NCBI GenBank assembly: GCA_016874005.1
Contig: VGVQ01000009.1
Coordinates: 74,158-138,157 of the forward strand
Length of the DNA stretch: 64,000 nt
Reading direction: 5' to 3'
DNA from: Gemmatimonadota bacterium
GTDB taxonomy: Bacteria > Gemmatimonadota > Gemmatimonadetes > Gemmatimonadales > GWC2-71-9
The position numbers were made by a program, and so were the translations under genes. Shown piece after piece: positions 1 through 62,282 of this stretch (within the stretch, counting starts at the first letter, position 1; every line of letters starts with the position of its first letter). The notes beneath the pieces were generated by a model. That model worked only from the letters and a program-made list of their open reading frames with translations. It was not told the DNA's origin and made no database searches.

Positions 1-1311
1 CGCGATCTCGGGGTGGCGATCCCGGAAACCGCCATCGCGGAACTCAAGACCCATCTCGACGATTGCGACCTGGCTCAGGCGGCCCAGTTCGAGCGGCGGT
101 TCCGGCACGACGTCATGGCCCACGTCCACGCGCTGGGCGAGCAGGCGCCGGCCGCCCGCCCGTTCATCCACCTTGGAGCCACCAGCGCGTTCGTCACCGA
201 CAACGCCGATCTGATGGTCATGCGGGACGGCCTTCGGATCCTGCTCGGCAGATTGGTCGCGCTGCTCCGGGCTCTCGGGGCGTTCGCCAATCGGCAGGCC
301 GACTTCCCCTGCCTCGCCTATACCCACTTCCAGCCGGCCCAGCTCACCACCGTGGGGAAACGGGCAACGCTGTGGGCCCAGGACTTCGCCCTCGACGTCG
401 AAGAACTGCTGCACCGCTTGGAGACGCTCCGGGCCCGCGGCTGCAAGGGCACGACCGGAACCCAGGCCTCGTTTCTCGAGTTGTTCAAAGGCGACCACGC
501 CAAGGTCCGGCAGCTCGACGAAGCGGTTACCCGGCGACTCGGGTTCGACTCGTCGTTCCCGGTGACCGGGCAAACCTACAGCCGCAAGGCCGACAGCCAG
601 ATCCTCGATTGTCTGAGTGGCATCGCCCAGTCGGCCTCGAAGATGGCGTCCGACCTCCGGCTGCTCCAGCATGAGGGTGAATTGCTGGAGCCGTTCGAAT
701 CCGAGCAGATCGGTTCGAGCGCGATGGCCTATAAGCGCAACCCGATGCGAGCCGAGCGGATCAATGCCCTGGCCCGGTTCGTGATCTCCCTTGGCGCCAA
801 CACGGCGCACACCGCCGCCACCCAATGGCTCGAACGGACTCTCGACGACAGCGCTAACCGCCGGCTGACCCTGCCCGAGGCGTTCCTCGCCACCGACGCC
901 ATTCTGATCCTGGCAACGAATATCGTGGCCGGGCTCGAAGTCCGCGACGCGGTGATCGCGCGGCACGTGGCCGAGCAGATGCCTTTCATGGCGACGGAGC
1001 GATGGATGATGCTCGGAGTCGAGGCCGGCGGCGATCGCCAAGCACTCCACGAGGTGATTCGCCAGGCCAGTCAGGCCGTCGCGCGCCAGGTCAGCGGCGG
1101 GGGCCCGAACGACTTGCTCGACCGACTCAGCGCCGCGCCCGAGTTCGGCGCGGTCGATCCCAGCCGACTCCGGGCCGAGCTCGACCCCCTCCGCTACGTC
1201 GGACGGGCACCCGAGCAGACCCGCGAGTTCCTGACCGAGTTCCTGACCCCGTTGATCGAGCGGGCGGCCGCGCTCGCCAACGACGCACCCATCGCGGAGA
1301 TCCGGGTATGA
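1..1311 (+). CDS. purB: adenylosuccinate lyase (5' partial, runs off window)
   Basis: The frame-1 translation is open to the window edge. It carries the fumarate-lyase signature GSSAMAYKRNPMRAE and the motif HLGATSAFVTDNADL. The N-terminal residues lie outside the window. The stop TGA at 1309-1311 overlaps the next start (ATGA). Confidence 0.9.
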   Translation, partial: RDLGVAIPETAIAELKTHLDDCDLAQAAQFERRFRHDVMAHVHALGEQAPAARPFIHLGATSAFVTDNADLMVMRDGLRILLGRLVALLRALGAFANRQADFPCLAYTHFQPAQLTTVGKRATLWAQDFALDVEELLHRLETLRARGCKGTTGTQASFLELFKGDHAKVRQLDEAVTRRLGFDSSFPVTGQTYSRKADSQILDCLSGIAQSASKMASDLRLLQHEGELLEPFESEQIGSSAMAYKRNPMRAERINALARFVISLGANTAHTAATQWLERTLDDSANRRLTLPEAFLATDAILILATNIVAGLEVRDAVIARHVAEQMPFMATERWMMLGVEAGGDRQALHEVIRQASQAVARQVSGGGPNDLLDRLSAAPEFGAVDPSRLRAELDPLRYVGRAPEQTREFLTEFLTPLIERAAALANDAPIAEIRV

Positions 1312-51298: not shown

Positions 51299-52471
51299 CT
51301 AGGGCTCGACTCGCTTCCAAAGGGTGATGTCCGTGAGCCACCCCTGTTCTTGGCGCTTGGTAAAGGACGCCTTGAGGTGAGGGGTGCGTTTGTGGGCCTC
51401 GAGCGCCGCGCTGTCGCGCCAGACCTCGAATCGAACGAACCGATTCGGCGCCCCGGCCGATTGGTAGAGATCGTACGCCAACGCCCCCGGCTCGGCCCGG
51501 GTCGGGGCGGTCAGCGCCAGCAACTCGCGCTTGAGCTCGTCCTCCCTGCCCTCCTTGCCGGTGATGAAAGTGAACGCGGTGATCAAGTCGGCCGCGACCT
51601 CGGCGCGCTCGCCCTTCAGCTCGATCAAGATGCCGTGGGCGTCCGTCTCCCCCACGTTGATCGGGGAATGGGTCACGGCCTCGCTGAACAGCACCTCACC
51701 AGGCTTGGCTTCGCGAACCCCTACTCGGCCATCCGGGAAAGTGAACCGGATCGTGAAAGGCTCGAGAACGTAGAGCACGTGGGCCGGGTGATCGTGGAGC
51801 ACCTCGCGATCGCCACGGCGGAGCTTGAAGTCCATGACCCGGACCCGACTGTTGTCGATCAGGACGCGATAGTTGCCGGGGTAGAGCGCCACCGGATCGA
51901 CCCGGAGATGACTGTTGGCAACGACCCGGTCCGCCGCCAGGAGTCCAGCGCGTTCGCGCTGAACGATCTCGGCGTTGCCGTCACCGCCGGTGCGGTCGAA
52001 CTCGATGGCGTGGATGTGGGCCACGATTGGGCGACCCGAAACGGCCCTGGCGCGCCGAGCGGCTTCGAAGGTAATCCAGTCGTGACAGTCGATGAGGTCA
52101 TGGGGTTCGCGGGCGGCAATCTCGGCGGCGACCGAAGCGAACCGCTCGACCTCGCGAAAGAGATCGGGGCCGTATACCAATCTGGTCCCGGTCCTGGGGC
52201 GTTTCAGGCTGGCGAACACCTCCCGATACTGGGCCTCGCCCGCGTAGGGCAGCAGGGGGGACGGGACCCGATGGACGGTCAGCCGCTCCTCGAGTTCCGG
52301 CGCCCCGACGAGCCGGAGGCCGGCGATGGGGTTCGACTCGACCGGAAACGGCACCACGAGGGTGACCTCGGTCCCCACCCGGAGAAGACCCTTTACGAGC
52401 CCAACGGTCGCGGTGGCGAGGCCGCCCGCCTGGTGGGGCGGGAATTCCCACCCGAACATCAGGACCCGCAC
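51299..52471 (-). CDS. chimeric protein: GT-B glycosyltransferase N-terminal half fused to cupin and ABM (antibiotic-biosynthesis-monooxygenase-like) domains
   Basis: The GTG at 52471 gives (M)RVLMFGWEFPPHQAGGLATAT, the N-terminus of glycogen-synthase/GT4-like enzymes. That similarity runs to about ...ADRVVANSH. The frame then continues into a cupin domain (YRVLIDNSRVRVMDFKLRRGDREVLHDHPAHVLYVLE...HSPINVGETDAHGILIELK). An ABM domain follows (ITAFTFITGKEGREDEL...RAEPGALAYDLYQS...FVRFEVWRDSAALEAHKRTPH). No GT-B C-terminal (nucleotide-sugar-binding) half is present. Confidence 0.6.
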   Translation of the reverse strand: MRVLMFGWEFPPHQAGGLATATVGLVKGLLRVGTEVTLVVPFPVESNPIAGLRLVGAPELEERLTVHRVPSPLLPYAGEAQYREVFASLKRPRTGTRLVYGPDLFREVERFASVAAEIAAREPHDLIDCHDWITFEAARRARAVSGRPIVAHIHAIEFDRTGGDGNAEIVQRERAGLLAADRVVANSHLRVDPVALYPGNYRVLIDNSRVRVMDFKLRRGDREVLHDHPAHVLYVLEPFTIRFTFPDGRVGVREAKPGEVLFSEAVTHSPINVGETDAHGILIELKGERAEVAADLITAFTFITGKEGREDELKRELLALTAPTRAEPGALAYDLYQSAGAPNRFVRFEVWRDSAALEAHKRTPHLKASFTKRQEQGWLTDITLWKRVEP

Positions 52472-52777
52472 GGGTTGGCTCCGGCTGCCGCCGTGCCGTG
52501 CTCCCAGCGATCGAGTACCGCCAAAACCCGGGCATACTCCCGATCGTAGCGGGGAGGGACAGCCGTCTGGTTCCGGCGGGATGCTGGTGGGTCGGCGCTC
52601 GAGGGCAATCAGGCTCCAGTACCGCAGTTGGTCGGTGAGAATCGGGGCCGGCTGATTGACCAACGCGACGCCATGATGACCGGTTCCCGTGGGATCGAAA
52701 CCGCGGGTGATGGCGTTTAGGGGGAGGCTTGGCGTTAATTCCTGGCCGGCGCGCTCAACCGACAGCCTGGGTAACAA

Positions 52778-53044
52778 ATGCAAGCTGAGCTCATTGCTGC
52801 CCGAATAATCGAGGGGTATCTCGTTGTCGGATTGATATTTGCGCTTTGGTTCATCGGCAGGGGCGCCGGCCGGCTCGACCCCGTCGCGAAGACCGGTTCG
52901 GCGGCGTTCCGACTGCTCTTGCTGCCGGCCAGCACGCTGCTGTGGCCCCTTCTCGCTTGGCGGATCGTTCGCGGTGGGCCGGCGCCCCCACCCGAGACCA
53001 ACGAACACCGGCGCCGCGCTCGCCGACTTGGATCGACCGAATGA
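52778..53044 (+). CDS. small membrane protein (2 predicted TM helices)
   Basis: The 88-aa product has two hydrophobic helices (YLVVGLIFALWFI and FRLLLLPASTLLWPLLAW). Its stop overlaps the next start (ATGA). It is the first gene after a 306-nt divergent intergenic region. Confidence 0.45.
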   Translation: MQAELIAARIIEGYLVVGLIFALWFIGRGAGRLDPVAKTGSAAFRLLLLPASTLLWPLLAWRIVRGGPAPPPETNEHRRRARRLGSTE

Positions 53045-53463: not shown

Positions 53464-55215
53464 GTGCCGGTCAACTGGAACCGCCAGAAACGACTTTACG
53501 ACCTCTGGGTGTCCTTGGGTACTCTGGCTCTGGTGGCGGGGTACGCCGTAGCCACCCTCGTCGTCCACCCGACCGCCACCGTCGAAACGGCTTTGATCAG
53601 GGGCCTCGGCTTCGCGGCGTTCCTGCTCCTGACCGTCATCCTGATGGTCGGACCCGCCAGCCGCCTCGACCGCCGTTTCCTGCCGTTGCTCTACAATCGC
53701 CGCCATCTCGGGGTGACCGTTGGCCTTCTCGGCCTGGCCCACGCCGCCTTCGTGCTCTTTCAGTACCACGCCCTCGGCAATACCGACCCGATCGCCAGCC
53801 TCCTCGCGATCCCGAGCACTCACGACGGGATTCCGTTCGAGTGGTACGGAATCGGGGCGGGCGTCGTCTTGTTCCTGATGGCAGCCACGAGCCATGACTA
53901 CTGGCTGTCGGTCCTCACACCGCCGGGGTGGAAGGCGCTCCACATGGCGGTGTATCCGGCCTACCTCGCCCTGCTCCTCCACGTCGGCCTGGGCCTGGGT
54001 CGCGCCGAACCCGCGCCGGTCTACCTCGCGACCGCGGGTCTGGCGGCGGTCCTGGTGGCTGCCATCCATCTGGTCGCCGCCCTCCGGGAGCGACGCGCTG
54101 ACCAGCCCGGCGGATCGGGACCTGATTGGGTCGACGTAGGGCCCGCCGATCGGATTCCCGAAGGACGGGCCATCACCCGGGTGGTCGCCGGCGAACGGGT
54201 GGCCGTCTTCCGCCACCAGGGGCGGGTCTCGGCGGTCTCGGGCGTCTGCAAGCACCAGAACGGCCCGCTCGGCGAAGGCAAGATCGTCGACGGCTGCATT
54301 ACCTGCCCATGGCACGGGTACCAGTACCGGCCCGAGGACGGAACCTCGCCGCCCCCGTTCACGGACTCGGTTCCGACCTTCAATCTCGCGGTCCGGGCCG
54401 GGAGAATCCTGGTCGACCCGGTGCCTAACCAACCTGGCACCCGGGTCGACCCGGTACCGGTGACGCCGCCGGCCGCGGTCGAGTCGGCGCCGTTCTACGT
54501 CGGCTACCTCCCGCCCCCGACCGGCCTCGTCCGGTTCCTGCGCGCCGTGCCGGCCGTGCTCCTGCTACCGCTCCTTGGCCTGATGGTGACGTTTGCCGCC
54601 GCCCAGCGTAGCTTCGATAGGGCGGTATTCGAGTATGGGACGGAGCGTACGATCCAGGGCACCGTGCGGACTGCGCCTTATCCGATGCTCGAGGTCGAAC
54701 GGCCCGGAACCGCGACCGTCAGCCGTTACCTGCTGGCCGGGTTCGGCAAACGGGGAGCCCAGGAGGCGACCGTCGGGCTCGACGGGAAGAAGGCCCGGAT
54801 CGTGGGCACCCTGGCCTACCGTGACAACCTGACCGTGCTCGAGATCGCCGGGGCCGAGCCCCTCGGACCCGGGAGGCCGGCGCCAGCGCCGCGGTCGGTG
54901 TCGGGGCGGTTGGACCTCGTTGGCGAGATCGTCGACGGCAAGTGCTACGCTGGGGTCATGAACCCGGGGCGCGGGGCGACTCACCGCGGCTGTGCCATCC
55001 GCTGTCTCGCGGGTGGTTTGACTCCCCTGTTCGTGATTCAAAACCAAGACGGAACCCTGGTGGAGATGATCCTCACGGACGACGCCGGTCACTCCCTGCC
55101 CCAAGCCGCCCGGTGGGCGGGACGCCCTGTCCAGGTATCCGGTCGGATCGAATCGCTCGACGACATCTGGTTTCTCCGCGTCGATCCTGCCACGATTCGT
55201 TCGGCGCATGACTGA
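53464..55215 (+). CDS. ferric-reductase-like transmembrane domain / Rieske [2Fe-2S] fusion protein with an uncharacterised C-terminal domain
   Basis: The N-terminal ~200 aa are polytopic with conserved-looking His residues (RRHLGV, LAHAAF, SHDYW, ALHMAVY), as in YedZ/MsrQ-type heme-b domains. A Rieske motif follows: CKHx16CPWH. After another TM segment comes a ~230-aa domain with a Cys cluster (GKCYAGVMNPGRGATHRGCAIRCLAGG). The start is a GTG. Confidence 0.65.
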   Translation: MPVNWNRQKRLYDLWVSLGTLALVAGYAVATLVVHPTATVETALIRGLGFAAFLLLTVILMVGPASRLDRRFLPLLYNRRHLGVTVGLLGLAHAAFVLFQYHALGNTDPIASLLAIPSTHDGIPFEWYGIGAGVVLFLMAATSHDYWLSVLTPPGWKALHMAVYPAYLALLLHVGLGLGRAEPAPVYLATAGLAAVLVAAIHLVAALRERRADQPGGSGPDWVDVGPADRIPEGRAITRVVAGERVAVFRHQGRVSAVSGVCKHQNGPLGEGKIVDGCITCPWHGYQYRPEDGTSPPPFTDSVPTFNLAVRAGRILVDPVPNQPGTRVDPVPVTPPAAVESAPFYVGYLPPPTGLVRFLRAVPAVLLLPLLGLMVTFAAAQRSFDRAVFEYGTERTIQGTVRTAPYPMLEVERPGTATVSRYLLAGFGKRGAQEATVGLDGKKARIVGTLAYRDNLTVLEIAGAEPLGPGRPAPAPRSVSGRLDLVGEIVDGKCYAGVMNPGRGATHRGCAIRCLAGGLTPLFVIQNQDGTLVEMILTDDAGHSLPQAARWAGRPVQVSGRIESLDDIWFLRVDPATIRSAHD

Positions 55216-56023
55216 GCCCCGTTTGGATCTCTTCTTTCCCGCAACCGCCGCGATCGCCTATCCGATCGAACCGGCCGCGGTCCCGAATTGCTCGATCGAA
55301 GCCGGACGTTACCAGGTGCGGTTCGCCAGGGCCGCCGACGATCTCGATCGGATCCTCGCCCTCCGCTACCAGATCTTCAACCTCGAACTCGGCGAAGGGC
55401 TCGACCAGTCGCACAGGAGCGGCCGCGACGAGGACGACCTCGACGGCCGAATGCATCACCTGATGATTCGCGACCGCCGTACTGACGAGGTGGTCGGAAC
55501 CTACCGGATGCAGACCGCCGACATGGCCGCCAGCCGCGGCGGCTTCTATTCGGCCCAGGAGTTCGATTTGGGACGGCTGCCGCGGGAGGTCATCGCCGCC
55601 TCGGTCGAGATCGGCCGGGCCTGCGTCGCTCGCGAGCATCGGAACGGTCGGGTCTTGAGCCTGTTGTGGCGCGGCCTCGCCGAATACCTCACCTGGAATC
55701 GGAAACACTTCCTCTTCGGGTGCTGCTCGCTCACCAGTCAGGATCCCGACCTCGGCGTCGACACCCACCGTTACCTCGAAGGGATCGGTGCGGCCCATCC
55801 AACGCTCGCCGTCCTCCCGCGGACGGGGTTCGAGTGTCGGCCAAGTCGGCCGCCGACGCCGGGGCCGGCCCACATTCCCGCCTTGTTCCAGAGCTACCTG
55901 AATCTCGGGGCCAAGGTGTTGGGACCGCCGGCGATCGACCGCCAGTTCAAGACGATCGACTGGCTGGTCATGCTCGACGTCCGGGAGATCGACCCGATGA
56001 CCTACCGCCATTTCTTCCGGTGA
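55208..56023 (+). CDS. olsB: OlsB-type N-acyl amino acid (lyso-aminolipid) synthase, GNAT-like
   Basis: The product contains ILALRYQIFNLELGEG...DEDDLDGRMHHLMIRDRRTDEVVGTYRMQ...VEIGRACVAREHRNG...ALFQSYLNLGAKV. This is the pattern of the OlsB/hemolysin-like acyltransferase family. The ATG overlaps the upstream gene by 8 nt. The head-group amino acid cannot be inferred. Confidence 0.7.
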   Translation: MTEPRLDLFFPATAAIAYPIEPAAVPNCSIEAGRYQVRFARAADDLDRILALRYQIFNLELGEGLDQSHRSGRDEDDLDGRMHHLMIRDRRTDEVVGTYRMQTADMAASRGGFYSAQEFDLGRLPREVIAASVEIGRACVAREHRNGRVLSLLWRGLAEYLTWNRKHFLFGCCSLTSQDPDLGVDTHRYLEGIGAAHPTLAVLPRTGFECRPSRPPTPGPAHIPALFQSYLNLGAKVLGPPAIDRQFKTIDWLVMLDVREIDPMTYRHFFR

Positions 56024-56874
56024 CGAATCCCGCGACGGAGGTTCGGCAGGAGGTCTACGGAGATCGTATCGGCCGTGATCTGCTCCGGCTGGTGCGTCGA
56101 GGCGAGTGGCCGGTGCTGTTCCGGCTCGGAGCCATCACCTGGTGGACCGGCGGCCTCCTGGTGGTGCTCCTGTCGGGGATGTGGCTCACCACCCCCTGGC
56201 CGAGTCGGCGGAGGCGATGGCGCAATGCCATCGTCAAGCGCTGGGCCAGGGGCATGGCCAGAATCGTGAACATGCGGATGGTGGTCGAAGGTCCGGTCCC
56301 ACCCGCGCCGTTCTTCTTGGTGTCGAACCACGTCAGCTACGTCGACATCGTCTTCTTGCTGGCCCATTTGGACGGCGTCTTCGTGGCCAAGCACGAACTC
56401 AACCAGTGGCCGGTCGTCGGCTACCTGACCCGCTTGGTGGGAACGATTTTCGTCAACCGACAAAGCCGTCGCGATTCCCTCCGCGTCATCGAGGCGATCG
56501 ATGCCCGGGTCGCCTCCGGCGATGGCGTCGTGGTCTTCCCCGAGGGCACCAGCTCGGACGGCGCTGACGTGCATCCGATGAAGGCGGCGCTGTTCGAATG
56601 GGCGGCCCAACGGGGCCACCCGATCCAGCACGCTGCCCTCCACTACCGGACCGCCGAGGGTGCTCCACCCGCGCGCGACGTCATTTGTTGGTGGGGCACG
56701 ATGTCGTTCCTACCGCACGTCCTCGATCTCTGTCGGCTGGGCGGCTTCACCGCCACGGTCCGTTTCGGAGCTGAGCCCTTGCTCGGAAACGATCGAGCCG
56801 CTCTGGCCGTACGGGCCCGTCACGCGATCGCGGCGAACTTCGTCGCGCATTCACCGAGGTCCAACTCGTTATGA
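56020..56874 (+). CDS. olsA: OlsA-type lyso-aminolipid O-acyltransferase (PlsC family)
   Basis: The GTG at 56020 overlaps the olsB stop (GTGA). An N-terminal TM helix is followed by the HX4D motif SNHVSYVD and by VVFPEGTSS. Confidence 0.7.
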   Translation: MTNPATEVRQEVYGDRIGRDLLRLVRRGEWPVLFRLGAITWWTGGLLVVLLSGMWLTTPWPSRRRRWRNAIVKRWARGMARIVNMRMVVEGPVPPAPFFLVSNHVSYVDIVFLLAHLDGVFVAKHELNQWPVVGYLTRLVGTIFVNRQSRRDSLRVIEAIDARVASGDGVVVFPEGTSSDGADVHPMKAALFEWAAQRGHPIQHAALHYRTAEGAPPARDVICWWGTMSFLPHVLDLCRLGGFTATVRFGAEPLLGNDRAALAVRARHAIAANFVAHSPRSNSL

Positions 56875-57363
56875 TCGACCCCAACCGTCAGTGCCTCGCG
56901 CAAGGCACCGAGCTACTCCAGGCTCTCACCGATGCCCAATACGCCGAGCCGCGCGGCGACTGGGCACCCGTCGGCGCCCAGTATCGTCATGTGCTCGATC
57001 ACTACCAATGCTTCCTCGACGGACTCGAGGGGGGACGGATCGATTACGACACCAGGTCCCGCGATCCGGATCTGGAGCGGAACCGGAAGGTCGCCCTCGA
57101 GGCAACGGCGCACCTCGCTGCCCGTCTGGCCGAGGCGACGGACATCGACCCCGATCGGCCCCCTGTTGATTCAACTGCAATGCGAGGCCGGTACCGAGTC
57201 ATGGAGTCGCTCGACGCTCGGGCGCGAGCTCCAGTTCCTGGTGAGTCACTCGGTTCACCACTTCGCCCTGATCAAGCTCCTCCTGGCCAACGATGGCCCG
57301 GTGCTGCCCCGGGAATTCGGCGTCGCTCCTTCGACTCTGAGCCACCAGGGCGCCCTTCGCTGA
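56871..57363 (+). pseudogene. DinB-family protein, reading frame broken by a 1-nt shift in a C5 run (authentic frameshift or sequencing error)
   Basis: The N-terminal ~97 codons (frame of 56871) read ...YRHVLDHYQCFLDGL... The C-terminal ~67 codons (frame +1) read LLIQLQCEAGTESWSRSTLGRELQFLVSHSVHHFALIKLL and end at TGA 57361-57363, 1 nt before the next start. The two frames join at CCCCC 57159-57163. Removing one C restores ...DIDPDRPLLIQLQ... Confidence 0.55.
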
Positions 57364-57364
57364 C

Positions 57365-58090
57365 GTGTGCACGGTAAGCTGGCTCCCGTCCCGGCGCGGG
57401 TACTGGCTGTTCGTGTCGCGCGATGAGCGCCTGACGCGAGCTCGCGCGGTGCCGCCGAGCCGTCGCCTGGTCGGGGCCGTCCGGATCTTGGCGCCAACCG
57501 ATGCCACGGCGCTGGGCACCTGGGTGGGCGTCAATCAGCACGGCGTCGCGGCGACGCTGCTCAACCGGTACGCGGACGCCGCCGACCTACCCACTCCGGG
57601 CACCGTGAGTCGAGGATTGCTGGTGCACTCGGTCCTGATGGCCCGCTCTGCCCCGGAGTTGATCGACCGGGTTCGGCGTGCCTCCCTCGGGCGCCATCAA
57701 CCGTTCACCATCGTGGCGATCGACAGCCGGCACCGCTGCCTGATCGGCGACTGGGACGCCCGGGAGTTCGAGGTCGACCGGGGACCGGAAGTCGGCCTGG
57801 TCCGAACCAGCTCGGGCCGGGACCAGGCCGAGGCCGAGCGCTCTCGCGCCGCCGCGTTCGCGGACCTGGCGAAAGACCAACGCCCGAGCGCCGCCCTCCT
57901 GGCCGCTTTTCACCGGGGGCATTGGCCGGCCAGGGGGCCGTTCTCGGTCTGTATGCACCGCGAGGAAGCGGCCACGAGGAGCCTCACCGTGGTGCGACTG
58001 CGGCCCACTCGGGCCACCATGTGGTATTGGGATGGCCCGCCCTGCCACCGGCCCAGGGTCGCTCGGCGGACCCTGACCCGGTCCCGATGA
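57365..58090 (+). CDS. NRDE/TANGO2-family protein
   Basis: A GTG start is followed directly by Cys ((M)CTVSWLP...), the N-terminal Cys typical of this Ntn-hydrolase-like family. The ~240 aa length also fits. This is a motif-level call from memory. Confidence 0.6.
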   Translation: MCTVSWLPSRRGYWLFVSRDERLTRARAVPPSRRLVGAVRILAPTDATALGTWVGVNQHGVAATLLNRYADAADLPTPGTVSRGLLVHSVLMARSAPELIDRVRRASLGRHQPFTIVAIDSRHRCLIGDWDAREFEVDRGPEVGLVRTSSGRDQAEAERSRAAAFADLAKDQRPSAALLAAFHRGHWPARGPFSVCMHREEAATRSLTVVRLRPTRATMWYWDGPPCHRPRVARRTLTRSR

Positions 58091-60684
58091 GCAAACGACC
58101 GAGGATCGCCCGGTGGATTCTGGCCGGGTACATCGTCTTGCTGGGACTCTCCAACGCGGTCCGCAGCGGGAACCCTCGGGGCGAACCGCCGGCGCCGGAC
58201 GAGCGCATCGTGACCATCGCGGGAGCCGACCGCGAGCTGGTCCGGATAGCATTGCGAGATACCGCCGCCGCAGGGGCAACCGGACTCCCGGTTCTGCTCC
58301 TCCACGGGAGCCCCGGCGACAACGGCGAGGTCTCTGGCATTGCCCGTCGGCTCGCGGGCAAACGACGAGCTATCGCGCCTGACCTGCCGGGGTTCGGCGG
58401 ATCGACCTGGACCATCCCCGACTACTCGATCGACGCGCACGCCCGCTACTTGCCCGCCCTGCTCGACTCACTCGGCCTCGCCAGGGTTCACGTCCTCGGC
58501 TTCAGCATGGGGGGCGGTGTGGCGCTCAAATTGGCCACCATCGCCCCGGAACGGGTGGCGTCCTTGGTCCTGCTTTCGTCGATCGGGGCCCAGGAGTACG
58601 AGTTGCTCGGCGACTACCATCTCAACCGTTCGATCCACGCCCTCCAGCTCGGACTGATCTGGGCGGTCGAAGAATTGACCCCCCATTTCGGGCGGCTCGA
58701 CGGCGGGTTTCTGACCCGGGAGTACGCCCGCAATTTCTACCACACCGACCAGCGGCCCCTGCGCGACGCGATGGCAACCTACCGGGGTCCCGCGCTGATC
58801 ATCCAGGGTGACCGAGACGGCTTGGTCCACCCGGCGGTGGCCCGAGAGTCTCACCGGCTGATGCCTCAGAGCGAGCTGGCGATGTTCGATGGCCCTGGCG
58901 CCGATCATTTCATCGCGTTTCGCCAGCCCGATTCCGTGGCCGTGCTGACGGAGCAGTTCCTCGATCGGGTCGATCGGAACGAAGCGCCGACCCGGGCCAC
59001 CGCGGACCCGGGCCGAGTCGCCTTGGCGGAGGCGCCGTTCGACCCCGGCTCGGTGCCGCCGGCGGTCGGCATCGCGCTGGTGGTGCTCGTCCTCCTGATC
59101 GCGGCCGCCACCTTCGTCAGCGAAGACCTGGCCTGCATTGCCACCGGTCTACTGGTGGCCCGGGGGACGCTGGCGTTCGGGGCCGGCACGATGGCGTGTC
59201 TGATCGGGATCTTCCTCGGCGACATCTGGCTCTTCCTGATGGGGCGATGGCTCGGCCGGCCGGCGTTGCGACGGATCCCGCTCCGGTGGTTCGTCTCGCC
59301 CGCCGCGGTCGACCGATGCGCGCGGTGGTTTGACCAGCGGGGTGCCTGGCTGATCCTGGCCACCCGCTTCGTGCCGGGGACGCGACTACCGACCTATTTC
59401 GCCGCGGGTGTGCTCCACGCCAGCGTGGTCGCCTTTCTGGGTGCCTTCCTCCTGGCCGCGGCGCTGTGGACACCGCTGCTCGTCGGGGCGAGCGCCCTCT
59501 TCGGCGACCGGGTGCTCGCCACCTTCGTCTCCTATCGGAGTTGGGCCCTCCCTTCCCTGCTGCTGCTGGCCATCGGGCTGTTCGTCCTGCTCAAGCTGGT
59601 GGTACCGCTGTTCTCCTGGCGGGGCCGGCGGTTGTTGCTCTCCCGGTGGCGACGCCTGACCCGGTGGGAGTTCTGGCCGCGCTGGGCGTTCTATCCGCCG
59701 ATCGTCGTCTACCTGCTGTGGCTGGCACTCAAACATCGGAGCCTAACGCTTTTCACCGCGGTGAATCCGGCCATCCCGGGCGGTGGCTTCGTCGGCGAAT
59801 CGAAGGCCCAGATCCTCCTGGGCCTCGCCCGGCGCCCCGAGGCGGTGGCGCGGTGGCGGCTGATTCCCGAGGCCATGCCCAGCGAGCGGCAAGGCATGGT
59901 GGCGCGGTTCATGGAGGACGCGGCTCTCGACTACCCGATCGTCCTCAAGCCCGACGTGGGCGAGCGCGGCGGTGGCGTCGGAATTCTCCGATCCGAGGCC
60001 GAAGTCGAGCGGTATCTGGCCGGAACCACCGAACCACTCATCGCGCAGGAATACGTTCCCGGCGTGGAGTTCGGGATCTTCTATTACCGGGTGCCGGGGA
60101 ACGACCGCGGCACCATCTTCGCCATCACGGACAAACGGTTCCCCACGGTGACCGGCGACGGCGCCGGCACCCTCGAGCGGCTGATCCTGGCCGACGACCG
60201 CGCCGTCTGCATGGCGCGGTTCTTTCTCGGCCTGCACGCCGAGCGACTCGACTGGGTACCGCCGAAAGGTGAGATCGTCCCCTTGGTCGTGCTGGGAACC
60301 CACAGTCGCGGCTCGGCGTTCTTCGATGGCGAGTGGATCCGGACCCCGGCGCTGGAGGCCGCCATCGACGAGCTGAGTCGGACCTTCGACGGGTTCTGGT
60401 TCGGCCGGTACGACGTGCGCGCCCCGTCTGCTGAGGCGCTGATGGCGGGGGTCGACTTCAAAGTGCTCGAGCTCAACGGGGCGACGGCGGAAGCCACCAG
60501 CATCTACGATCCGAAGAACAGCCTGATGACGGCATACCGAGTGCTCTGCCGCCAGTGGGCGATCCTGTTCGATATCGCGGGGAAGAACGTCGCGGCTGGG
60601 GCCCGTCCATCCAGCTGGCGCGAGCTGTGGGAACTGATCGGCCGGCACCGACGTTCCATTGGCGCGCACGTCGACGTGACCTGA
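58087..60684 (+). CDS. three-domain fusion: alpha/beta hydrolase - DedA/VTT membrane domain - ATP-grasp ligase
   Basis: The ATG at 58087 overlaps the upstream stop (ATGA). Residues ~1-300 have a TM anchor plus LLLHGSPGD, the nucleophile elbow GFSMGGG, and GDRDGLV...GADHF. Residues ~330-520 are DedA-like (VSEDLACIATGLLV, FLGDIWLFLMGRWLG, RFVPGTRLPTYFAAGV). Further TM helices follow. Residues ~640-865 are ATP-grasp-like (YPIVLKPDVGERGGGVGIL, LIAQEYVPGVEFGIFYY, VLELNGATAEATS). Confidence 0.7.
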   Translation: MSKRPRIARWILAGYIVLLGLSNAVRSGNPRGEPPAPDERIVTIAGADRELVRIALRDTAAAGATGLPVLLLHGSPGDNGEVSGIARRLAGKRRAIAPDLPGFGGSTWTIPDYSIDAHARYLPALLDSLGLARVHVLGFSMGGGVALKLATIAPERVASLVLLSSIGAQEYELLGDYHLNRSIHALQLGLIWAVEELTPHFGRLDGGFLTREYARNFYHTDQRPLRDAMATYRGPALIIQGDRDGLVHPAVARESHRLMPQSELAMFDGPGADHFIAFRQPDSVAVLTEQFLDRVDRNEAPTRATADPGRVALAEAPFDPGSVPPAVGIALVVLVLLIAAATFVSEDLACIATGLLVARGTLAFGAGTMACLIGIFLGDIWLFLMGRWLGRPALRRIPLRWFVSPAAVDRCARWFDQRGAWLILATRFVPGTRLPTYFAAGVLHASVVAFLGAFLLAAALWTPLLVGASALFGDRVLATFVSYRSWALPSLLLLAIGLFVLLKLVVPLFSWRGRRLLLSRWRRLTRWEFWPRWAFYPPIVVYLLWLALKHRSLTLFTAVNPAIPGGGFVGESKAQILLGLARRPEAVARWRLIPEAMPSERQGMVARFMEDAALDYPIVLKPDVGERGGGVGILRSEAEVERYLAGTTEPLIAQEYVPGVEFGIFYYRVPGNDRGTIFAITDKRFPTVTGDGAGTLERLILADDRAVCMARFFLGLHAERLDWVPPKGEIVPLVVLGTHSRGSAFFDGEWIRTPALEAAIDELSRTFDGFWFGRYDVRAPSAEALMAGVDFKVLELNGATAEATSIYDPKNSLMTAYRVLCRQWAILFDIAGKNVAAGARPSSWRELWELIGRHRRSIGAHVDVT

Positions 60685-61181: not shown

Positions 61182-62282
61182 ATGTCCAACTCGCAGTGGC
61201 ACGACCTCGGCCCAGCCGACCAGTTCGCCGCCAAGCCGCTCCAGCAGGTTGTCATCGGCCGCACCCGGATCGCCCTGTCGTTTCGCGACGGCACCTTCGC
61301 CGCGATCTCGGGCGCCTGCAATCATGTGGGCGGTCCGCTCGGCGATGGCCGGCTGGATGGCGAGTACGTCGTCTGCCCGTGGCACAATTGGAAATACCAT
61401 CGGACAACCGGGGCCGGCGAACCCGGGTATGAAGCGGAGACCGTGCCCAGATACCAGGTCGAGGTGCGAGAGGGGCATTTGTGGATCGACCTGACCCCAG
61501 CCGGGAAGCGAAACCGGATCCCCCACGAGCCCCACGCCCTGGCCCGTCCGGTCGTGCGGGAGGCCGGCCCCCTCCGGGTCGCCGGGATCTCGACCACGGC
61601 CATCGACGAAGCCAACCCCCGGTTCTCGACCTCCGAGGCCCTGCTGGCCGCCGCGCTGGCGCATGCCAAGGGTCGCGGCGCGGAGACCCGCCTGATTCGG
61701 CTGAGCTCGCTTTTCTTTCGTCACTGCGAGGGCTACTACTCCAAGAGCGCTCAGGCCTGTACCTGGCCGTGCTCGATCACCCAGATGGACCCCAACGACC
61801 AGATGGACCAGGTCTACGAGGCGATGGTCCATTGGGCGGACGTGGTGATGGTGGCGACACCGATCCGCTGGGGCGCGGCCAGTTCCCTGTATTTCAAGAT
61901 GGCCGAGCGCCTCAACTGTGTGCAGAACCAGACGACCATCCGGGACCGGGTTCTGATCCGCAACAAGGTCGCGGCCTTCATCGTCACCGGTGGCCAGGAC
62001 AACGTCCAGGGAACGGTGGGCCAGATGCTGACGTTTTTCGGCGAGCTCGGGTTCGTCTTCCCCCAGTTCCCGTTCATCGCCCACTCCCGCGGCTGGTCGG
62101 CGGAAGACATGGAGAACAACGTCCGCGTCGTTCGAGACAGCGCCGAGCTCCGCGAGGGCGCCGAGCAGCTGATCGACCGGTCGCTGGAGGTGGCGAAGCA
62201 CCTGCTCGCCTCGGCGCCGCCCAACACCGTGGCTCGCGGCGGCCGCAAAGCTCACCCCGTCAATGGAGGACAGCCGGCATGA
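61182..62282 (+). CDS. Rieske [2Fe-2S] domain fused to a flavodoxin-like NAD(P)H:FMN reductase domain
   Basis: The N-terminus has the Rieske motif CNHx16CPWH. The C-terminal ~230 aa resemble flavodoxin-fold FMN reductases or iron-sulfur flavoproteins (LRVAGISTTA...DVVMVATPIRWGAASS...AAFIVTGGQDN). An extra Cys triad, CEGYYSKSAQACTWPC, is present. Confidence 0.65.
   Translation: MSNSQWHDLGPADQFAAKPLQQVVIGRTRIALSFRDGTFAAISGACNHVGGPLGDGRLDGEYVVCPWHNWKYHRTTGAGEPGYEAETVPRYQVEVREGHLWIDLTPAGKRNRIPHEPHALARPVVREAGPLRVAGISTTAIDEANPRFSTSEALLAAALAHAKGRGAETRLIRLSSLFFRHCEGYYSKSAQACTWPCSITQMDPNDQMDQVYEAMVHWADVVMVATPIRWGAASSLYFKMAERLNCVQNQTTIRDRVLIRNKVAAFIVTGGQDNVQGTVGQMLTFFGELGFVFPQFPFIAHSRGWSAEDMENNVRVVRDSAELREGAEQLIDRSLEVAKHLLASAPPNTVARGGRKAHPVNGGQPA

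Follow-up and report, generated by a model that had tools for sequence, protein, structure and literature searches.

A conserved alpha/beta-hydrolase, DedA and ATP-grasp fusion protein in an aminolipid operon of Gemmatimonadota, with a possible role in lipid head-group ligation and translocation

The DNA analysed here, a 64,000-nucleotide stretch of contig VGVQ01000009.1 from a Gemmatimonadota bacterium (the window), carries a run of genes that encode, in order, a ferric-reductase/Rieske protein, OlsB-like and OlsA-like acyltransferases, a DinB-like protein, a TANGO2-like protein and an 865-residue fusion protein, with an overlap of stop and start codons at every junction (Table 1). The last of these genes is the subject of this study. 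It reads through 865 codons without interruption and encodes a real, conserved membrane protein that joins a serine hydrolase, a DedA domain and an ATP-grasp domain.

Table 1. Features of the fusion protein and of the genes around it; positions are those of the window unless a locus is named.
Feature	Coordinates	Strand	Basis or remark
Ferric-reductase-type transmembrane (TM) and Rieske protein, first gene of the run	53464..55215	+	stop overlaps olsB start
OlsB-like N-acyltransferase (Acetyltransf_5)	55208..56023	+	Pfam 3.5e-29; NCBIfam OlsB 1.8e-37
OlsA-like lyso-aminolipid O-acyltransferase (PlsC family)	56020..56874	+	NCBIfam OlsA 1.2e-40; GTG start overlaps olsB stop
DinB-like gene, frameshifted near 57131-57157	56871..57363	+	recurring module partner
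TANGO2/NRDE-family gene, N-terminal nucleophile (Ntn)-hydrolase-like	57365..58090	+	Pfam TANGO2 7.5e-12; starts V-C-T, S-R-D-E motif
Whole fusion open reading frame (ORF), 865 residues	58087..60684 (stop codon 60682-60684)	+	translation, full-length homologs
N-terminal helix (residues 5-28), short hydrophobic signal-anchor with basic N-terminus	58099..58170	+	AlphaFold2 (AF2) helix, charge; predicted inside to outside
Alpha/beta-hydrolase domain (residues ~40-296)	58204..58974	+	Pfam, triad, structural neighbours; predicted periplasmic
Catalytic Ser140; Asp244; His274	58504-58506; 58816-58818; 58906-58908	+	invariant triad
DedA/VTT membrane domain (residues 326-508)	59062..59610	+	Pfam, YqjA alignment, charge, AF2 helices
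DedA parts: outer hairpin (HPout) 326-358 with D347 at its tip; TM 364-385; basic cytoplasmic loop; inner hairpin (HPin) 427-445 with R427/R433; TMs 447-470 and 488-508			
Basic amphipathic helix (511-525) and conserved hydrophobic helix (532-549)	59617..59733	+	conservation, standalone homologs
ATP-grasp ligase domain (residues 550-865)	59734..60681	+	profile search, AF2/Foldseek, invariant residues; predicted cytoplasmic
Rieske and flavin mononucleotide (FMN)-reductase protein, downstream	61182..62282	+	lineage-specific accessory
TANGO2-like genes outside the window	L092 10768-11514 (V. cholerae); L087 9641-10420		

The start codon of the fusion is sound on two counts: the ATG shares bases with the TGA that closes the upstream gene (ATGA), and alignments to homologs begin at residue 1. 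Homologs of 850-890 residues make up more than 120 clusters; their alignments cover about 98 % of the protein, with 55-71 % identity, and those with a taxonomic label belong to Gemmatimonadota. An origin of the fusion in an assembly error or a frameshift, which an earlier reading of the DNA (the sequence-only reading) had named as one circumstance that would undo it, is ruled out by these independent full-length clusters together with the intact frame. In the source databases the homologs are labelled "alpha/beta fold hydrolase" or "carboxylesterase/DedA", and none of the full-length clusters carries a Pfam ATP-grasp annotation. A second homolog search, for a cultured Gemmatimonadota host of the fusion, returned metagenome-assembled genomes (MAGs) only.

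The N-terminal part of the protein has the fold, the G-x-S-x-G elbow and the Asp/His triad residues of the alpha/beta-hydrolase serine hydrolases. It matches Pfam Abhydrolase_1 above the curated threshold (E 1e-26, 94 bits), its elbow G-F-S140-M-G-G-G, D244 and H274 are invariant in 27 homologs, and its lid region is highly conserved. The nearest structures are carboxylesterases, an N-acyl-homoserine lactone lactonase and PlaF, a phospholipase A that is membrane-anchored and has a TM helix at its N-terminus (TM-scores to esterases 0.6-0.75, normalised by target length).

The DedA domain matches Pfam VTT_dom at E 4e-16 (60.1 bits against a cut-off of 33.9) and carries the COG0586-type signature, in which hairpin 1 is acidic and hairpin 2 holds two arginines, with E346/D347, R427 and R433 invariant in 27 homologs. 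BLASTP to Escherichia coli YqjA (E 2e-6) pairs D51 with D347, R130 with R427 and R136 with R433. The YqjA sequence used for this alignment reproduces the residue labels quoted from a study by the substituted cysteine accessibility method (SCAM). The domain has in common with the COG0586 DedA proteins (YqjA/YghB, UptA) the VTT domain, the opposed re-entrant hairpins, the hairpin-1 Asp and the hairpin-2 R-x5-R, whereas it differs from them in being covalently joined to two enzymes and in lacking a conserved equivalent of YqjA E39. Nor is it a member of the UptA equivalog of NCBIfam, for which it scores far below the cut-off (E 1e-12, 48.2 bits against 250). The fusion partners listed in a published survey of DedA proteins are rhodanese, PAP2 and pyridine-nucleotide oxidoreductase domains, and neither ATP-grasp nor alpha/beta hydrolase is among them.

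Homology to YqjA also bears on membrane topology. In the SCAM data, A20, S52, V59 and V180 of YqjA are periplasmic and V99, L117 and G217 cytoplasmic, and a modelling and cross-linking study of 2026 describes periplasmic N-terminal helices, with the hairpin tips at 39-51 (HPout) and 132-135 (HPin). Transferred to the fusion through the alignment, these positions indicate that S322, which immediately precedes helix 326-344, is periplasmic and that the loop 386-426 and the C-terminus are cytoplasmic. The net charge is +4.6 in loop 386-426, +5.9 in loop 509-531 and +2.4 at the N-terminus, where it is a family-wide property. Two-domain variants of the protein start only 8-25 residues before the S-E-D tip of the hairpin, with no Lys or Arg in that stretch, and because such a first arm is too short to span the bilayer, their N-terminus lies on the hairpin's entry side. 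The topology predicted by homology is thus a cytoplasmic N-terminus, an anchor at about residues 10-25, a periplasmic hydrolase, the DedA core and a cytoplasmic ligase, the last placed there also because it requires ATP. A count of TM segments that takes helix 326-344 as spanning would put the hydrolase in the cytoplasm; it was rejected on the YqjA mapping with the periplasmic N-terminal helix of YqjA, the charges and the short-armed two-domain variants.

The ATP-grasp assignment called for a real test, because Pfam gave only a sub-threshold RimK match in the C-terminal third (E 0.022); no ATP-grasp family was matched at threshold, and neither Dala_Dala_lig_N nor Dala_Dala_lig_C was matched by the window protein. 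A profile of residues 548-865 (A2), built from 15 homologs, was therefore compared with the PDB sequences and gave 35 matches, essentially all of them ATP-grasp enzymes. The best was CphA2 (7ta5, deposited as "glutathione synthase", 8.9e-8), followed by cyanophycin synthetase 1, GshAB, D-alanine--D-alanine ligase (Ddl), PurD, RimK and biotin carboxylases. Foldseek with the AF2 model of the domain (predicted local distance difference test score 78.5) gave 429 matches in the PDB at E<=1e-3; the top matches listed are ATP-grasp enzymes, with cyanophycin synthetase, GshAB and Ddl in the lead. Consistently, the ATP-binding Lys, the Gly-rich loop and the Mg2+-binding R-x-D...E-x-N of the superfamily are present: K621 (in P-x-V-x-K-P), the G625/G628/G630 loop, Q654, E661, R774-x-D776 and E795-x-N797 are invariant both in 27 close homologs and in a 12-sequence alignment that includes Vibrio, Paracoccus, Komagataeibacter, Variovorax and Azospirillum. 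We class the C-terminal domain as an atypical member of the ATP-grasp superfamily, with a predicted activity of ATP-dependent carboxylate-amine/thiol ligation. All three domain calls of the sequence-only reading have thus held, two by Pfam and the third by profile and fold searches, and its spatial logic is supported as well: by homology to the probed YqjA and by the distribution of charge, the ligase is predicted inside, the DedA domain between and the hydrolase outside.

What makes the domain atypical is the stretch ahead of the ATP-grasp core. Ddl, PurD and biotin carboxylase align with the domain only from the point where their own N-terminal domains end (in Ddl, residue 116), and the AF2 model has just short helices ahead of the central domain, so the N-domain that normally binds the substrate is absent. 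Its position is taken by the helices 511-525 and 532-549 and a loop, N560-P561...G567...G570-E571-x-K573. Together these form the most conserved part of the protein, and they are kept in Vibrio, Paracoccus and Komagataeibacter, whose ATP-grasp homologs are standalone proteins. On our reading of this conservation, the helices 511-549 may tie the ligase to the cytoplasmic face of the membrane, so that it would be bound to the membrane surface in its own right. The closest structural relatives, the G-domain of CphA1, GshAB and Ddl, all join an amino acid or peptide, through its alpha-carboxylate, to the amine of an amino acid. The window ligase is like them in its ATP-grasp fold, its ATP/Mg2+ residues and the R-x-D...E-x-N motif, but shares only 13-20 % identity with cyanophycin synthetase, GshAB and Ddl (8-16 % with the Ddl structures) and has the membrane helix and loop where they have the N-domain.

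Of the genes upstream of the fusion, the OlsB-like and OlsA-like genes score 129 and 139 bits in their best NCBIfam matches against equivalog cut-offs of 300-350, and their membership in the OlsB and OlsA families is clear from these profiles. Their position and the overlapping junctions confirm that the fusion stands in an aminolipid operon, as the sequence-only reading had supposed. The TANGO2/NRDE protein, with its Ntn-hydrolase fold, Cys2 and NRDE-type motif, is kept beside the DedA and ATP-grasp genes from Gemmatimonadota to Vibrio cholerae.

The distribution of the ATP-grasp family was examined by a profile scan of species-representative genomes, which found it in at least 540 genomes of Gemmatimonadota, Acidobacteriota (Blastocatellia), Verrucomicrobiota, Calditrichota, KSB1 and other phyla, and by an exhaustive search of 1.84 billion representatives, which returned 1,493 clusters at E<=1e-30. 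These clusters fall into two length groups, one of about 520-600 residues (DedA and ATP-grasp) and one of about 800-900 residues that includes the hydrolase. Hidden Markov models (HMMs) of the module families were built from the first 83 loci. In every locus retrieved, the VTT and ATP-grasp parts are contiguous, either fused or in overlapping genes, whereas the hydrolase is present in all 28 Gemmatimonadota loci, 13 of 21 in Acidobacteriota and two of three in Verrucomicrobiota, and is missing from the proteobacterial versions. The hydrolase is therefore an optional add-on, and DedA plus ATP-grasp is the constant core. This corrects the sequence-only reading, which had treated the triple fusion as the functional unit: eight of the 21 Acidobacteriota loci and the proteobacterial versions do without the hydrolase, and the conserved unit is made up of DedA, ATP-grasp and the DinB-like and TANGO2-like genes, the latter two of which that reading had not considered.

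The optional nature of the hydrolase bears on a Dlt-like carrier relay, in which the ligase would load an amino acid or a small acyl group on a lipid, the DedA domain would flip it, and the hydrolase-fold domain would transfer the group to a periplasmic or outer-membrane acceptor. The predicted placing of the ligase in the cytoplasm and of the Ser-His-Asp domain in the ATP-free periplasm would suit such a relay, as would the conserved lid, which suggests a specific substrate, and OlsI, a protein of alpha/beta-hydrolase fold, is an aminolipid O-acyltransferase (PMC12493201). However, an activity that is dispensable in many lineages is no obligatory core step and no acceptor candidate was identified, and we regard the relay as distinctly improbable.

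Synteny was counted over 55 species loci with at least 3.5 kb of upstream sequence, in which olsB and olsA were scored when on the same strand within 4.5 kb. Both genes lie upstream in 46 of the 55, a DinB-like gene in 44 and a TANGO2-like gene in 38. In a MAG of Opitutales (L073, 8969-10270), the fusion has DinB and TANGO2 upstream without olsBA and is followed by a GT1-family (EryCIII/UDPGT-like) glycosyltransferase and FtsW, a hint that, in certain lineages, the module may work on head groups of other lipids. A separate observation concerns the names of some carriers: several MAGs (loci L021, L028, L030, L034, L035, L040, L043, L056 and L061) are labelled Heliomicrobium, Heliobacteriaceae or Clostridia, yet have 51-61 % GC, olsB/olsA-type genes and proteins closest to those of Acidobacteriota and Gemmatimonadota, and the taxonomic labels of these co-assembly bins look doubtful.

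In cultured Proteobacteria, tblastn against annotated plasmid and chromid records found homologs of the ATP-grasp domain at 36-42 % identity. In Azospirillum lipoferum 4B the homolog is a fusion of two domains (E 1e-74), and the gene downstream of it is not a homolog of the hydrolase. In Variovorax the ATP-grasp gene is followed immediately by olsB, and in Salinivibrio separate genes stand in the order VTT, ATP-grasp, DinB and NRDE (that is, TANGO2). The Komagataeibacter homologs are standalone, plasmid-borne and not beside ols genes. On plasmid 1 of Paracoccus denitrificans PD1222 (L086, 6920-9611), an ATP-grasp gene (PDEN_RS24485), an alpha/beta hydrolase (PDEN_RS25810) and, on the opposite strand, a VTT gene (PDEN_RS24475) are adjacent, with no ols genes within 7 kb; the hydrolase and VTT neighbours resemble the window domains at family level only.

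The family is also found in V. cholerae (786 member sequences), V. vulnificus, V. harveyi, Aliivibrio, Marinomonas and Shewanella. The Vibrio members are labelled "D-alanine--D-alanine ligase" and have no precomputed Pfam entry; since they lack the Ddl N-domain and match no Pfam family at threshold, this label is probably a misannotation. In V. cholerae (L092, 8423-13713), genes on one strand encode in order a VTT protein, an ATP-grasp protein (the two genes overlapping), a DinB-like protein (HMM 1e-33), a TANGO2-like protein (2e-64) that starts with MC and has NRDE, a YHS protein and an OlsF-type synthase. Judged by gene order, the last four are the published operon VCA0649 to VCA0646, with VCA0648 as the TANGO2-like and VCA0647 as the YHS gene, so that the VTT/DedA and ATP-grasp genes directly precede this operon on the same strand. 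V. vulnificus (L094) likewise has the module in one same-strand run with an OlsF-type synthase, and V. aquimaris has one tight same-strand run of VTT, ATP-grasp, DinB, TANGO2, YHS, a small ORF and an OlsF-type bifunctional synthase (NCBIfam OlsF 1e-126). The DinB-like and TANGO2-like genes and the aminolipid synthase thus match genes of the window; the vibrio genes differ in being separate, in an OlsF-type synthase, in the lack of the hydrolase and in the addition of the YHS protein. The latter, which has a signal peptide and lies between TANGO2 and the synthase (L089 10291-10728, L092 11525-11971, L094 11571-12008), has no counterpart in the window.

VCA0646 is an experimentally verified ornithine lipid (OL) synthase that is induced at low salinity, and alone in E. 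coli it yields unmodified OL (PMC12186959). Since VCA0646 suffices for OL, the other genes of the module would act downstream of synthesis, in modification, translocation or turnover, and a role of the ATP-grasp protein in supplying a substrate for N-acylation was rejected for the vibrio orthologs. A separate study describes the VCA0649-VCA0646 operon as HapR-activated, "of unknown function" and linked to quorum-sensing-controlled cell death, which it reports upon overexpression of vca0646 and vca0647. VCA0647 to VCA0649 are treated in published work as genes of unknown function, and the two genes upstream of VCA0649 are not mentioned in the retrieved text of these two papers.

The linkage of the module to two non-orthologous types of synthase, OlsB/OlsA and OlsF, in distant phyla argues strongly for a function on or with acyloxyacyl aminolipids and is hard to account for without a shared substrate. 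We propose, tentatively and at somewhat less than even chances, that the fusion is the Gemmatimonadota form of a widespread module of DedA, ATP-grasp, DinB-like and TANGO2-like proteins that ligates, flips and hydrolyses acyloxyacyl aminolipids once these have been made; for the substrates and the sequence of events the proposal draws on context only. In the cytoplasmic leaflet, OlsB and OlsA would make ornithine lipid or a similar aminolipid. The membrane-held, cytoplasmic ATP-grasp domain would then use ATP to form an acyl-phosphate and, from it, an amide bond on the lipid head group. In the most likely polarity the free alpha-carboxylate of the head group would be joined to a small amine or an amino acid, and the reverse, an amino-acid carboxylate placed onto the free amine of the lipid, would also be possible. 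The DedA domain, with an acidic hairpin tip and two arginines of the kind with which DedA transporters bind anionic head groups, would move the lipid to the periplasmic leaflet. Where present, the periplasmic Ser-Asp-His hydrolase could remove the added group or an acyl chain, for turnover or remodelling.

Head-group ligation is the most economical assignment because the ligase appears membrane-bound, lacks the N-domain and has relatives that couple an alpha-carboxylate to an amino-acid amine. The same relatives could be taken to favour a soluble product, since GshAB and cyanophycin synthetase are among the nearest: the ATP-grasp enzyme would make a small peptide or thiol compound, DinB and TANGO2 would process it, DedA would export it, and the aminolipid genes would be neighbours for reasons of regulation. 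DinB-fold proteins are often thiol-dependent enzymes, and the periplasmic YHS protein of the vibrio operon is of a metal-binding type; both would fit. Such a pathway is nonetheless very unlikely in our view, as the ligase has no soluble substrate-binding N-domain and conserves its membrane helix even when unfused, and as the physical fusion is to a DedA protein, a class implicated in lipid rather than solute transport.

Several observations weigh against aminolipid modification as we propose it. The OL of V. cholerae was reported as unmodified, by thin-layer chromatography and mass spectrometry methods that were not aimed at modification, and no modified aminolipid has been reported from any carrier of the module. 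Nine of the 55 loci have neither olsB nor olsA nearby, and the homologs of Azospirillum, Komagataeibacter and Paracoccus have no aminolipid synthase within 7-8 kb. The proposal leaves the roles of the DinB and TANGO2 partners unexplained, and the inter-domain geometry in the AF2 model of the fusion is uncertain (predicted TM-score 0.50). Finally, the DedA part is most similar to the undecaprenyl-phosphate transporters (UptA), and its cargo could accordingly be a different anionic lipid. The same machine might then act on undecaprenyl phosphate-linked intermediates or in the ester or amide aminoacylation of phosphatidylglycerol, its linkage to ols genes reflecting co-regulated envelope remodelling. 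The COG0586/UptA-type signature, with arginines six residues apart that are thought to bind phosphate, the loci without ols genes, and the glycosyltransferase and FtsW genes downstream in the Opitutales locus all speak for this. The UptA score of 48 bits against 250, and a linkage to both OlsBA-type and OlsF-type synthases that extends across phyla and often involves overlapping codons, speak against it, and we consider a different lipid cargo unlikely.

MprF modifies lipid head groups in the cytoplasm, has a built-in translocation domain and is accompanied by periplasmic hydrolases (AcvB/VirJ, PA0919) that can reverse the modification. The sequence-only reading had seen in the fusion a possible tRNA-independent analogue of this system. 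The layout and the logic of the system are indeed alike, and the hydrolase is accessory in both, but the parallel is one of analogy only: the fusion does not belong to the MprF family, it has neither LPG_synthase_TM nor LPG_synthase_C among its Pfam matches at E<=0.1, it would use ATP via an acyl-phosphate rather than aminoacyl-tRNA, its context is that of aminolipids rather than phosphatidylglycerol, and its hydrolase is fused. A chemical precedent is the formation of cerilipin, a tauro-ornithine lipid, in Gluconobacter cerinus, where an ATP-dependent activity forms an amide on the OL carboxyl group, which is the type of reaction expected here (PMC12971839). According to the same review, of March 2026, this transfer of taurine is ATP-dependent and its enzyme and gene are still missing. 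By analogy, the ATP-grasp family is a plausible enzyme type for cerilipin-like reactions, although in Komagataeibacter, a genus related to Gluconobacter, the homologs stand alone on plasmids, away from ols genes.

Other features of the window touch the module less directly. The DinB-like region (56871-57377) has its N-terminal half in one frame and its conserved C-terminal half (...SHSVHHFALIK...) in the +1 frame, where it ends just before the TANGO2 start; relative to homologs in loci L001 and L002 this is a frameshift, either a sequencing error or the mark of a pseudogene. The ferric-reductase/Rieske and Rieske/FMN-reductase genes are lineage-specific accessories that recur in a subset of the Gemmatimonadota and Acidobacteriota loci; their products might work as a pair that passes electrons to a lipid oxygenase or hydroxylase, but no oxygenase catalytic domain was seen. 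A divergent ORF of 569 residues (51299-53008, reverse strand) unites a GT4/GT5-type glycosyltransferase N-terminal part with a C-terminal ABM (antibiotic biosynthesis monooxygenase) domain, which is an unusual pairing; traces of this ORF also stand beside the operon in L004 and L066. A search for sigma-70-type promoters and intrinsic terminators around the operon found none, which is uninformative in a GC-rich, non-proteobacterial genome.

In the literature searched, we found no publication that describes the module and, in keeping with the sequence-only reading, no precedent for a characterised protein of this architecture; reports of aminolipids in Gemmatimonadota or Blastocatellia were likewise not found. 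Full-text searches returned nothing that links DedA with aminolipids, or TANGO2 with DedA, DinB, ATP-grasp or ornithine lipid, and no paper was found that notes a linkage of bacterial TANGO2 to an aminolipid module. What we rate as new is a lipid head-group modifier, flippase and hydrolase that would combine a DedA domain with an ATP-grasp clade so far lacking annotation. Hundreds of proteins labelled "alpha/beta hydrolase", "VTT domain protein" or "D-alanine--D-alanine ligase" have a ligase hidden or misnamed within them.

Aminolipid reviews describe the ATP-dependent addition of taurine without a gene and name no enzyme for translocation or turnover; the module is a candidate for a taurine-type addition and for both of these steps. 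More broadly, and with appreciable doubt, the ATP-grasp family may be the long-missing enzyme type for ATP-dependent amide bonds on aminolipid head groups and, with its DedA, DinB-like and TANGO2-like partners, may form a pan-bacterial pathway that makes and exports undescribed dipeptide-type or amide-capped aminolipids. If so, the family would fill the place of an enzyme whose reaction, that of cerilipin formation, was already known in the 1970s but still has no gene assigned to it. DedA proteins occur almost universally, yet for few of them is the cargo known; the fusion and its lipid-synthase operon name a candidate cargo, which would be the first defined physiological one for a DedA protein. 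The human TANGO2 protein, the product of a disease gene, binds acyl-CoA, and its function is debated (PMC11867700, PMC12359130); a bacterial homolog would be placed in N-acyl lipid metabolism and would offer a bacterial handle on this disease protein of debated biochemical role. The carriers include abundant soil phyla (Gemmatimonadota, Acidobacteriota and Verrucomicrobiota) and the tractable V. cholerae, V. vulnificus, Paracoccus denitrificans and Azospirillum lipoferum.

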